Below, piece by piece: positions 5,983 to 9,901 of a stretch of DNA of 11,331 nucleotides. Both the position numbers and the translations under genes were made by a program. The stretch covers positions 1 to 11,331 of the forward strand of contig DASQOM010000190.1 of the NCBI GenBank assembly GCA_035644495.1, read 5' to 3'. Under the pieces are notes generated by a model. That model saw only the letters and a program-made list of their open reading frames with translations. It ran no database searches and was not told the DNA's origin. Numbering within the stretch: position 1 is the stretch's first letter; each line of letters opens with the position of its first letter. The stretch is from Planctomycetota bacterium. Lineage in GTDB: Bacteria; Planctomycetota; MHYJ01; JACPRB01.

Positions 5983-6285
5983 CTATCGCGGGCCGATCAC
6001 GCCCAGGCTGAACAGAGCGCCCCCGGCGATCCAGAGCAGGATCGACATCCCCCCCCACGCGAGCCGGCATCGGAACTCCAGGGGGTTGTCGACCCGACGA
6101 AGCACGCCCCGCGGAGTCCGCAGGAGTCCATGCTCCCGGCACCGCGCCATCGACAGCAGGCCCCCGAGTCCCACGGCCAGGGTCCCCAGGGCGACGAGCC
6201 CTCTCCAGCCCATCAGCATCGACAGCCCGCAAAGGCCCAGTCCGCCGACTCCCAGCATCAGGATCCACCGTTCTCTTCGACGCAT
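5983..6285 (-). CDS. Small integral membrane protein (100 aa, ~3 predicted TM helices), encoded directly downstream of the flotillin gene
   Basis: An ATG with a strong SD (GGAAGGAGGGCACG-ATG). Hydrophobic segments: ILMLGVGGLGLCGLSMLMGW, LVALGTLAVGLGGLLSM, MSILLWIAGGALFSLGVIG. Third codon positions are strongly G/C. It lacks an NfeD-type C-terminal beta-barrel, so it is not a classical NfeD/YqiJ. Contains a G8 run (plus-strand C8 at 6049-6056). Confidence 0.6.
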   Translation of the reverse strand: MRRRERWILMLGVGGLGLCGLSMLMGWRGLVALGTLAVGLGGLLSMARCREHGLLRTPRGVLRRVDNPLEFRCRLAWGGMSILLWIAGGALFSLGVIGPR

Positions 6286-6309
6286 CGTGCCCTCCTTCCC
6301 TGCCCGGGA

Positions 6310-6347
6310 GGGGATGAAGGACGCCCGTTGCGGACGCCTTCATCCCC
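6310..6347 (-). other. Intercistronic RNA stem-loop between the flotillin gene and the small membrane protein gene
   Basis: An 11-bp perfect inverted repeat, GGGGATGAAGG (6310-6320) / CCTTCATCCCC (6337-6347), with a 16-nt loop that contains a CCG-TTG-CGG mini-stem. It lies 10 nt after the flotillin stop and 24 nt before the next SD. No U-tract follows. Confidence 0.35.
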
Positions 6348-6357
6348 CGTTGTGTCG

Positions 6358-8461: not shown

Positions 8462-8490
8462 TTGCCCGGGGACCCGACCCGGGATATGGT
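8462..8490 (+). promoter_or_regulatory. Candidate σ70-type promoter for the bEBP gene (TTGCCC-N17-TATGGT)
   Basis: -35-like TTGCCC (8462-8467), 17-nt spacer, -10-like TATGGT (8485-8490); each hexamer matches at 4/6. It would give a 40-50 nt leader to the ATG at 8540. It overlaps the inverted-repeat patch, which would allow autoregulation. Confidence 0.2.
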
Positions 8491-8509
8491 GTTTTTCACC
8501 AAGGTTGGT
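8487..8509. promoter_or_regulatory. Cluster of short perfect inverted repeats (TGGTG-TTTTT-CACCA and ACCAA-GG-TTGGT) in the divergent intergenic region. Candidate enhancer (UAS) for the bEBP.
   Basis: TGGTGtttttCACCA (8487-8501) overlaps ACCAAggTTGGT (8498-8509). This is an AT-rich patch in otherwise GC-rich DNA, 60-85 bp upstream of the σ54 -24 element, which is the typical position for bEBP binding sites. CCTGGaagCCAGG at 8446-8458 is another palindrome nearby. Confidence 0.3.
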
Positions 8510-8539
8510 TTTTTCTGTCAGATGAGGTATCCTGCTACC

Positions 8540-9901
8540 ATGCTCCAGTCGATCCTCATCTTCGATCCGGGGGGACGCGATCTCGAGCCGTTGCGTGAAG
8601 CGTTCCAGGTCGAGGTCCGCCCCGAGGACGAAGTCCACCTGGTCCGGACGACGAAGGACCTGCTCCGCCGCGCCGGCGACCGGTCCCGCGCGTCCATGGT
8701 CGTGCTGCCGGAGACCTCGCCCGCGGATCTGATCCGCCGCCTGCGCCGCGAGGACCCGGGGATTCCGGTCATCCTCGCGGCCGACAAGGGCAGCGTCGAG
8801 CGGGCGGCCCGCGCGATCGCCCTCGGCGCCAGCGAGTTCCTCGTCACCGGCGAACGCCTCCGCGAGCGCATCGCCACGCTGCTGGGCAAGCTGCGCGGGC
8901 TGACCGAGGCCCTCGACCGGAACCGCCGGCTCGACGAGCAGAACGCGCGGCTGCGCGAGGCGATCCAGGCGCGCTTCCAGATCATCGGCGAGTCGCCGCA
9001 GATCCAGGCGATGATCGACCGCCTTCAGCGCGTCGCCCCCGTCCCCCGGCCGCTTCTGGTCACGGGAGAGCGGGGCACCGGCAAGGAGCTGGTCGCGCGC
9101 GCGATCCATTTCTCCTCCGGACCTGCGACGCGGCCCATCGTCTCGGTCAACTGCGCCGCCTTCAACGACGCCCTGCTCGAGAGCGAGCTCTTCGGCCACG
9201 AGAAGGGCGCGTTCACCGGCGCCGACCAGCCGCGCCAGGGCAAGTTCGAACAGGCCGACGGCGGCACGCTCTTCCTCGACGAGATCGGCCACATGTCGCC
9301 CGTCTTCCAGAAAAAGATCCTGCGCGTCGTGGAGTACGGCACCTACACCCGCGTGGGCGGCACGAAGGAGCTCCGCAGCAGCGCCCGCGTCGTCGCCGCG
9401 ACCAACGTCGACCTCCGCGAGCGGATCCGCAGCGGGGAGTTCCTCTCCGACCTCTACGACCGCCTGGCGTTCGAGATCGTCCGCGTCCCGCCGCTCCGCG
9501 AGCGCGAGGGCGACGTCGACGTCCTCGCCCGCCACTTCCTCAACCAGTTCGCGCTGGAGATCCCGGCTTTCCGCGACCGGCGCCTCTCCGCGGAGGTGCT
9601 CCGACGCCTCAATCGCTACCGCTTCCCGGGCAACGTGCGCGAGCTCAAGAACATCATCGAGCGCGCGGCCTGCCGGGATACGGGGAGCGAAATCTCGCTG
9701 GACGACCTTGGCCTGCTGCTCGACGACGAGCCGGCGTCGAAGCGCGGCAGCCTCCACGACAAGGTGGACTCCTACCGCCGGCGCCTGATCGCCGACGCGC
9801 TCAAGGACGCGGGGGGAAACCAGGTCCGCGCCGCCCGGGCGCTCGGCCTCACGTACCACCAGTTCCGCTACTACCACCGGAAGAGGCGCCAGGGAACGTA
9901 G
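8540..9901 (+). CDS. σ54-dependent transcriptional activator (bacterial enhancer-binding protein, NtrC family) with a receiver-like N-terminal domain, AAA+ σ54-interaction domain and a C-terminal Fis-type HTH
   Basis: ORF 8105..9901; the first ~145 codons overlap the flotillin gene and promoter and are low-complexity. The start is taken at ATG 8540 (MLQSILIFDPGG) with GAGG 12 nt upstream; ATG 8522 is an alternative. Walker A GERGTGKE, GAFTGA motif (FGHEKGAFTGA), Walker B GGTLFLDEIG, arginine finger region RVVAATN, and HTH GNQVRAARALGLTYHQFRYYHRK are all present. Confidence 0.9.
   Translation: MLQSILIFDPGGRDLEPLREAFQVEVRPEDEVHLVRTTKDLLRRAGDRSRASMVVLPETSPADLIRRLRREDPGIPVILAADKGSVERAARAIALGASEFLVTGERLRERIATLLGKLRGLTEALDRNRRLDEQNARLREAIQARFQIIGESPQIQAMIDRLQRVAPVPRPLLVTGERGTGKELVARAIHFSSGPATRPIVSVNCAAFNDALLESELFGHEKGAFTGADQPRQGKFEQADGGTLFLDEIGHMSPVFQKKILRVVEYGTYTRVGGTKELRSSARVVAATNVDLRERIRSGEFLSDLYDRLAFEIVRVPPLREREGDVDVLARHFLNQFALEIPAFRDRRLSAEVLRRLNRYRFPGNVRELKNIIERAACRDTGSEISLDDLGLLLDDEPASKRGSLHDKVDSYRRRLIADALKDAGGNQVRAARALGLTYHQFRYYHRKRRQGT

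Follow-up and report, generated by a model that had tools for sequence, protein, structure and literature searches.

Introduction

SPFH/flotillin-type proteins are widespread in bacteria, and their physiological triggers are poorly defined. The flotillin operons of Bacillus are under sigma-W control and, to our knowledge, where the control of an SPFH/flotillin gene is known it is exerted by sigma factors of the extracytoplasmic function (ECF) type. In the phage-shock-protein (Psp) system of Escherichia coli, the activator PspF uses two upstream activating sequences (UAS) at pspA, regulates itself negatively through these sites and is repressed by PspA (PMC3709507). The locus described here lies in an 11,331-nucleotide stretch of contig DASQOM010000190.1 from a Planctomycetota bacterium (GenBank assembly GCA_035644495.1), hereafter the window, and consists of a gene for an SPFH-domain membrane protein and a divergent gene for a sigma-54 enhancer-binding protein (the activator). 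The arrangement resembles the phage-shock switch and is conserved in one lineage of the Planctomycetota, a view that is well supported by comparison with related loci.

As in E. coli pspF-pspABCDE, the activator and its target are divergent, one short control region serves both, and a sigma-54-type promoter lies on the side of the target. The spacers are laid out alike: in E. coli, GATGAAATTCGCCAC abuts the pspF ATG, TTAGTGTAATTCGCTAA comes some 20 bp later, and next is TGGCACG-N4-TTGT. The target is also of a membrane-associated, oligomer-forming protein type. In contrast to the Psp system, however, it is an SPFH protein and not PspA, which has the ESCRT-III fold, and the window has no gene for PspA. 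Furthermore, the module has no pspB or pspC, its small gene for a protein with three transmembrane (TM) segments is unrelated and unconserved, and a short spacer of about 35-60 bp separates the UAS from the promoter.

Predicted sigma-54 regulons, including those of the Planctomycetia, were surveyed in 2025 (PMC12316311); COG2268, YqiK, HflC, PspA and PspF are all unmentioned in that survey. A 2024 survey of Psp systems noted PspA-Band_7 operons; PspF homologues were not part of what it analysed. Full-text literature searches found no paper that linked sigma-54/RpoN or PspF to an SPFH/flotillin gene, and none that described such a module in Planctomycetes.

Results

A sigma-54-type element upstream of the SPFH gene

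A first-pass annotation of the window, made from the sequence, had placed a -24/-12 element upstream of the SPFH start codon. This element was found as TGGCATG-N4-TTGCG at 8412-8427 of the minus strand, with its GG doublet at 8425-8426 and its GC doublet at 8413-8414, 29 nt 5' of the SPFH ATG (8382). Read on the minus strand, the spacer runs through CCG, TGGCATG, CCCC, TTGCG and ATGAAGGGCCCCGACGAAAGGAGGGGCTT to the ATG. The distance of 113 bp to the activator, also given in the annotation, was correct as the interval between the edge of the element (8427) and the activator ATG; the intergenic gap itself is 157 bp.

When compared to TGGCAC-N5-TTGCW, 14 of the 16 consensus positions were matched by TGGCATGCCCCTTGCG, and the two doublets were 10 bp apart. 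With one mismatch allowed, TGGCATGCCCCTTGC was the sole match to TGGCAYGNNNNTTGC in the 11.3 kb of the window (0.29 matches expected from shuffles), and it was also the sole match to TGGYRYN5TTGC (0.13 expected). From the positions of the doublets, transcription is predicted to start near 8401, which would give a leader of 19 nt that includes AAGGAGG. A second sigma-54-like string, TGGCTTCCAGGGGGTTGCA (~8440-8458), was rejected, being unconserved and having three bases too many between its GG and GC doublets.

Promoter scoring, which had been proposed as a check on the element, was carried out on the 300 nt 5' of each SPFH orthologue, using simple weights for TGGCACG-N4-TTGCW (maximum score 17.5). 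On the gene strand a score of at least 14 was reached at 26 of 27 activator-linked loci compared to 12 of 68 unlinked loci (Fisher p = 4e-13), in support of the element. The mean best score on this strand was 15.8 for the linked loci (n = 27) and 12.9 for the unlinked loci (n = 68; Mann-Whitney p = 8e-12), whereas the opposite strand showed no enrichment (12.9 and 12.7, respectively). In close relatives the element is kept as TGGCA(C/T)G-N4-TTGC(A/G), and its 3' end lies 28-30 nt 5' of the ATG; the perfect consensus was present in six of them.

Good sigma-54-like strings were also observed at two loci that lack an activator in the 2-5 kb upstream: CGGCACGGCGATTGCC in L013, some 129 nt 5' of the SPFH match, and CGGCACGCTACTTGCT in L023, 27 nt 5' of it. 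The SPFH orthologues at these two loci may be under the control of an unlinked activator.

Conserved intergenic blocks and candidate activator sites

The intergenic region was aligned for 15 close relatives, in which the spacer varied in length from 122 to 167 bp and was unalignable outside four conserved blocks. The first block adjoins the activator ATG and has the consensus ~TGA-AAAA-CA (UAS A). The second, TGGTGA-N-CACATC (UAS B), is situated 19-20 bp from UAS A and is the most conserved block of the intergenic region. The third corresponds to the promoter element (tGGCa.g...cTTGC), and the last is the Shine-Dalgarno sequence AAGGAGG, followed by the ATG of the SPFH gene.

In the window UAS A is centred at ~-112 relative to the predicted transcription start and lies 20 nt from the activator ATG. 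UAS B is a perfect 5-N5-5 dyad centred at ~-93 and 19 bp from UAS A, and both candidate sites are within 55 bp of the activator ATG. These would be normal positions for an enhancer-binding protein, whose sites are expected 70-150 bp upstream of the promoter, and both dyads are regarded as candidate binding sites. A position-weight matrix was built from 28 sites and run over the whole window; UAS B scored 23.3 bits and UAS A 18.5 bits, and the next, unrelated site scored 8.9 bits. Palindromic activator sites had been suggested for the region 8440-8520. Two conserved dyads, at 8487-8501 and 8506-8520, bore this suggestion out in part; the CCCGGG palindromes (8461-8481) are conserved in no relative and were discarded.

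A "terminator-like" scan match at 8487-8501 on the plus strand was also discarded, as it consists of the UAS B dyad and a T-rich stretch after it. Because the half-sites are conserved and the centre is variable, this segment reads as a protein site and not as an RNA hairpin. More distant loci (L004-L065) carry a GG-N10-GC element and paired dyads that adjoin the activator ATG, with longer leaders. UAS I of E. coli PspF, TTAGTGTAATTCGCTAA, resembles the half-sites of such distant loci, for example TTAGTGTATTTCACTA in L018; the matrix score was not significant. A weak TATCCT/TATACT box lies 6-8 nt 5' of the activator ATG and could give rise to a leaderless activator mRNA.

Conservation of the activator-SPFH pair

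A forward test was based on 401 species genomes with an SPFH relative, and 80 of these loci were compared. A divergent activator orthologue (53-59% identity) was present upstream in 10 of the 80. Seven close metagenomic relatives, whose SPFH proteins are 67-91% identical to that of the window, were also compared (P0004, P0015 and P0019 by gene tables), and six of the seven had the same pair. Their outer flanks differed and included an ABC transporter, 870-residue proteins of no known function and genes of a type II secretion system; the divergent pair, whose conservation the annotation had proposed to check, is kept while the flanking genes change. Two of the seven, P0004 with the pair and P0015 without it, came from the same Joint Genome Institute (JGI) sample. 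In a neighbour-joining tree of the SPFH proteins, every activator-linked locus fell within one of two major clades, and none of the 63 loci in the other clade had a linked activator.

In the reciprocal test, metagenome contigs were searched with the N-terminal 145 residues of the activator only. This search gave 23 loci, 21 of which had DNA upstream of the activator. The gene facing the activator was an SPFH orthologue in 16 cases, a different Band_7 protein in one and a short form of the SPFH protein in four (three of them distinct). With 21 of 21 such genes belonging to the SPFH family, the partner of this activator subfamily is in every case an SPFH-family gene.

The different Band_7 protein (L104, 1492-2901 on the minus strand) is lipoprotein-like, has a Band_7 match of its own (1.5e-7), is preceded by TGGCCCGGCTCTTGCT and faces an orthologue of the activator. 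Since this partner differs, the link between activator and SPFH protein extends past one orthologous group. In the short forms the SPFH protein is reduced to its TM helix and initial ~80 residues; they are encoded on the minus strand in L102 (3453-3791), L105 (3089-3700) and L106 (713-1444; the same as L107). All three loci keep the activator and the GG-N10-GC element, and the truncated genes could be decayed remnants or encode functional mini-proteins. Clustering of the neighbouring open reading frames (ORFs) of 85 loci gave no further conserved neighbour, in an output that was confounded by antisense ORFs in GC-rich DNA.

The activator is PspF-like and carries a receiver-like domain

The annotation had identified the divergent gene product as a sigma-54-dependent AAA+ activator, and this was confirmed by Pfam matches to Sigma54_activat (1.8e-61), AAA_lid_14 and HTH_8 (1.4e-6). 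The protein is composed of a pseudo-receiver (residues 1-~105), a coiled-coil linker (~105-146), the AAA+ sigma-54 interaction domain (148-310; window 8981-9469), a lid and a Fis-type helix-turn-helix (HTH; 414-444; window 9779-9871). The Walker A (GERGTGKE), Walker B (GGTLFLDEIG) and GAFTGA motifs were intact in all 13 aligned orthologues. Alignment to residues 7-324 of E. coli PspF gave 43% identity (E = 5e-86), and the recognition helix LGLTYHQFR is identical in the two proteins. Together with the two candidate sites abutting the activator start, these results agree with the pspF-like arrangement that had been proposed.

The highest-scoring NCBIfam model was also that of PspF (TIGR02974), at 341.6 bits, a score below the equivalog cut-off of 443.55 and little above those of the NifA (325.8) and NtrC (313.9) models. 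In contrast to PspF, the activator has about 145 extra N-terminal residues, comprising the pseudo-receiver and linker, and lacks the tryptophan through which PspF contacts PspA (W56).

The N-terminal domain aligns to the receiver of NtrC, and its match to Response_reg (19.8 bits) is under the Pfam cut-off of 30.2. Where the phospho-acceptor aspartate would stand, 12 of 13 orthologues have a conserved proline (P57); the acidic pair is also missing, as are residues equivalent to NtrC T82 and K104. Since the phospho-acceptor is missing, release by phosphorylation is not possible. The order of receiver-like domain, helical linker, AAA+ domain and HTH is that of activators of the NtrC1/DctD type; the activator differs from these in lacking the phospho-acceptor aspartate and in having a PspF-like DNA-binding domain. 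In NtrC1/DctD the receiver represses assembly of the AAA+ domain through a coiled-coil linker. The activator family shares a conserved helical linker (motif RI(A/G)TLLGKL...NR.L.E.N..LR), and this conservation and the domain order suggest negative control by the N-terminal domain. The activator is therefore read as a protein that is probably PspF-derived and gated by a pseudo-receiver with an input other than phosphorylation.

The target is a divergent SPFH protein

The only Pfam match of the target was to Band_7/SPFH (4e-17, residues 289-503). A predicted N-terminal TM helix (residues 2-24) is followed by a conserved beta-rich extension (27-288), the SPFH domain and, in a structural model, a long helix (478-623). 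The target, which combines the membrane helix with this C-terminal helix, is a genuine SPFH protein. The family is centred on the Planctomycetota, with 7990 matches in protein databases, the top ones being 60-92% identical and of similar length.

Like the flotillins B. subtilis FloT/YuaG and E. coli YqiK, which have the NfeD-like partners YuaF/YqiJ, the protein has a predicted N-terminal membrane anchor, an SPFH domain and a long helical C-terminal region rich in alanine and glutamate, and in the window a small multi-TM gene follows. It is labelled "YqiK" by the JGI, and the first-pass annotation had called it a flotillin. This name did not hold. BLASTP against E. coli YqiK gave an E value of 0.22, confined to the coiled-coil part, and hhalign of the SPFH family against YqiK gave a probability of 1.7%. 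No Flot domain was detected by Pfam, no NCBIfam model was matched, and the small protein contains no NfeD or DUF1449 domain, whereas SPFH2-type flotillin operons have been defined partly by their NfeD2 partner (PMC2636767). The target also has the extra conserved N-terminal region of about 260 residues. As a family label "flotillin" is unsupported, and on these comparisons the target is best described as a divergent SPFH protein.

The extra N-terminal region bears a weak resemblance to vault-protein repeats. Unlike MVP (major vault protein), the target is membrane-anchored and has no Pfam match to Vault or MVP_shoulder; the likeness scores are modest and the model is of medium confidence. Bacterial MVP-like proteins have so far been reported from other phyla (bioRxiv 10.1101/872010). 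An internal duplication of the SPFH domain was rejected as the origin of the extension (hhalign probability of 10.7%, not significant). A search of PDB sequences with the family profile gave nothing below E = 0.3, and a first AlphaFold2 run with 20 sequences was unusable, with a mean predicted local distance difference test (pLDDT) score of 44.

Proposed mechanism and alternative explanations

Taken together, the sequence and the comparisons make it likely that the SPFH gene is driven by sigma-54 holoenzyme at 8412-8427, with the divergent protein, bound at 8487-8520, as its activator. None of the results was of a kind that the annotation had named as refuting its proposal. In such a mechanism sigma-54 RNA polymerase would sit at the -24/-12 element as a closed complex. 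Oligomers of the AAA+ activator would bind the dyads at ~-93 and ~-112 and loop to the promoter, where ATP hydrolysis and the GAFTGA loop would open it and give a short-leader SPFH mRNA from near 8401. Transcription that reads through the hairpin at 6310-6347 may yield the small three-TM protein as well. Because both sites are within 55 bp of the activator ATG, their occupancy probably represses the activator gene too, as in pspF. The pseudo-receiver most likely keeps the AAA+ ring inactive, to be released by a non-phosphoryl signal from a protein partner or a ligand; that the inducing signal would be envelope or membrane stress is a guess drawn from the Psp analogy.

On this reading the module is a conserved case in which an SPFH gene is under an enhancer-dependent switch whose default state is off, and the SPFH protein would therefore be needed only under a specific condition. 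The activator would represent a PspF-type regulator that has taken on a target different from PspA and is gated by a receiver that can no longer be phosphorylated. Planctomycetota have unusual membranes and few genetic tools, and the promoter with its two sites would provide a clean reporter for finding the inducing condition in these bacteria.

Several observations weigh against this reading. It draws on sequence and comparison, and the presence of rpoN is beyond the view of an 11-kb window. The linked loci share descent, and the p-values of the promoter scoring overstate their independence; because of this relatedness the intergenic alignment is the better argument. The weight scheme is also of low specificity, as shown by the 12 unlinked orthologues with scores of at least 14. 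P0015 (JGI sample 3300047160), whose SPFH protein is 83% identical to that of the window, has kdpA-kdpB-kdpC upstream after a gap of 718 bp and no activator, and three loci that belong to the linked clade, namely L002, L005 and L013, have no activator within 3.5-5 kb. In the psp region of E. coli the UAS matrix ranked PspF UAS II as the second-best site, at 8.1 bits, which was not significant; this score is too weak to claim a specificity common to the planctomycete activator and PspF. The case for autoregulation is one of geometry, and no sigma-70-type promoter for the activator was found in the consensus scan.

The alternative that survives best, although it must be considered doubtful, is a feedback of the Psp type, in which the cytoplasmic part of the SPFH protein would bind the pseudo-receiver or AAA+ domain of the activator and hold it inactive in the absence of stress. 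Membrane damage would bring the SPFH protein back to the membrane and free the activator, the SPFH protein taking the role of PspA. The arrangement and the output domains are PspF-like, the activator is not switchable by phosphorylation, and no kinase gene adjoins it in the loci with listed gene calls. The basic residues near the N-terminal TM helix all follow the helix, which may fit a cytoplasmic bulk domain. On the other hand, the PspA-contacting W56 is not conserved (the position reads SSGPATRP), and the SPFH and PspA folds are unrelated. The constant pairing of the activator with the SPFH family, including the Band_7 protein of L104 and the truncated forms of L102, L105 and L106, fits a target that is also the partner, but a plain regulator-target pair predicts tight pairing equally.

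A more elaborate and distinctly less probable version is a self-contained membrane-integrity circuit. Here a vault-like, membrane-anchored SPFH cage, built of beta repeats, an SPFH shoulder and a cap helix, would be made on demand from the sigma-54 promoter, would restrain the PspF-derived activator via its phosphorylation-dead receiver and would itself sense the state of the membrane. If true, such a circuit would link ESCRT-III/PspA and SPFH, two unrelated membrane-remodelling families, via a common regulator, and SPFH proteins would gain a defined signalling role.

It is very unlikely that the -24/-12 match is not a working promoter, with the SPFH gene under a sigma-70 or ECF promoter and the activator serving an unlinked gene. 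ECF control of Band_7 genes has been described in Flavobacterium (PMC9723704), and most orthologues, those of the 63-locus clade, lack a linked activator and for the most part the sigma-54 motif as well, so the family is expressible without them. However, the motif is kept base for base amid drifting surroundings and co-occurs with the activator on the correct strand only, and the reciprocal search always gave an SPFH-family gene opposite the activator. In addition, a consensus scan of 4400-10000, including the intergenic region, found no sigma-70-like promoter, and the UAS matrix found no further site in the window.

An ordinary response regulator of the NtrC/ZraR type, switched on through phosphorylation of its receiver by a distant histidine kinase, would suit the domain order, the weak Response_reg match and the description of predicted Planctomycetota activators as ZraR (PMC12316311), but is the least probable alternative and largely excluded by the missing aspartate, the missing acidic pocket and T82 and K104 equivalents, NCBIfam scores far below the cut-offs of the NtrC, ZraR and AtoC models, and the lack of a kinase gene conserved nearby in the compared loci.

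The small gene, hairpins and neighbouring genes

The coordinates of the features of the locus are collected in Table 1. The GC content of the window was 67%, and gene calls made independently on a matching metagenome contig (ENA ERZ27253147) gave identical coordinates for the genes of the locus.

Table 1. Positions of genes and sequence elements of the SPFH-activator locus in the window.
Feature	Position	Strand	Basis or remark
Activator (sigma-54 enhancer-binding protein), 453 aa	8540..9901	+	Pfam; ATG at 8540
SPFH-domain membrane protein, 674 aa	6358..8382	-	Pfam Band_7; ATG at 8382
Small 100-aa protein, three hydrophobic segments, conserved basic loop	5983..6285	-	Lineage-restricted accessory
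UAS A, candidate activator site TGACAGAAAAAACCA	8506..8520	-	Intergenic alignment, matrix
UAS B, candidate activator site TGGTGAAAAACACCA	8487..8501	-	Intergenic alignment, matrix
Sigma-54 -24/-12 element TGGCATGCCCCTTGCG	8412..8427	-	Consensus match, conservation
Shine-Dalgarno sequence AAGGAGG, 5 nt 5' of the SPFH start codon	8388..8394	-	Sequence; conserved block in relatives
GC-rich terminator-like hairpin without U tract	6310..6347	-	RNA fold
Hairpin 3' of the small gene, CGAAGGCCG-CGU-CGGCCUUCG	5947..5969	-	RNA fold, 10-bp stem

The first-pass annotation had counted the small three-TM protein as part of the operon. Its gene was found only in the closest relatives and lies past a strong hairpin, and it is an accessory of these relatives and not part of the module core; most of the lineage has a unit of one SPFH gene and its regulator. 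The protein matched no Pfam or NCBIfam model. A profile hidden Markov model of the small protein, run against all ORFs of L001-L085, matched only L001 (the contig of the window), L082 and L084; in the latter two, homologues with 35% identity occupy the same position. P0004 has a 95-residue gene, possibly a homologue, at this position.

The hairpin directly 3' of the SPFH stop codon has a GC-rich stem of 17 bp and looks like a terminator; the 72-nt spacer folds at -37.6 kcal/mol (z = -4.08). Most related loci have an equivalent hairpin 3' of the SPFH gene, frequently together with a T tract. The hairpins of the window and of L082 (just after 8016) have a common arm, GGGGATGAAGG/CCTTCATCCCC, in spacers that otherwise differ. 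In the window the small gene begins 25 nt past the hairpin and may be expressed by read-through. The hairpin 3' of the small gene is weak (z = -1.44) and is possibly the end of the transcript.

The module is flanked in the window by genes for DUF1501, carbon-nitrogen hydrolase, DUF488 and Volactin-type actin proteins (Pfam, gene calls). The carbon-nitrogen hydrolase gene is on the same strand as the activator gene and starts 7 nt past its stop codon (9901-9909), and the two are probably co-transcribed in the window. The gene 3' of the activator varies among relatives, and the link to the hydrolase is therefore not conserved. The actin-family protein is encoded at 1278-3167 on the plus strand (Pfam Volactin, 5.8e-80) and has about 300 residues of coiled coil ahead of its Volactin part; on the P0004 contig a Volactin gene likewise lies within a few kb of the module.

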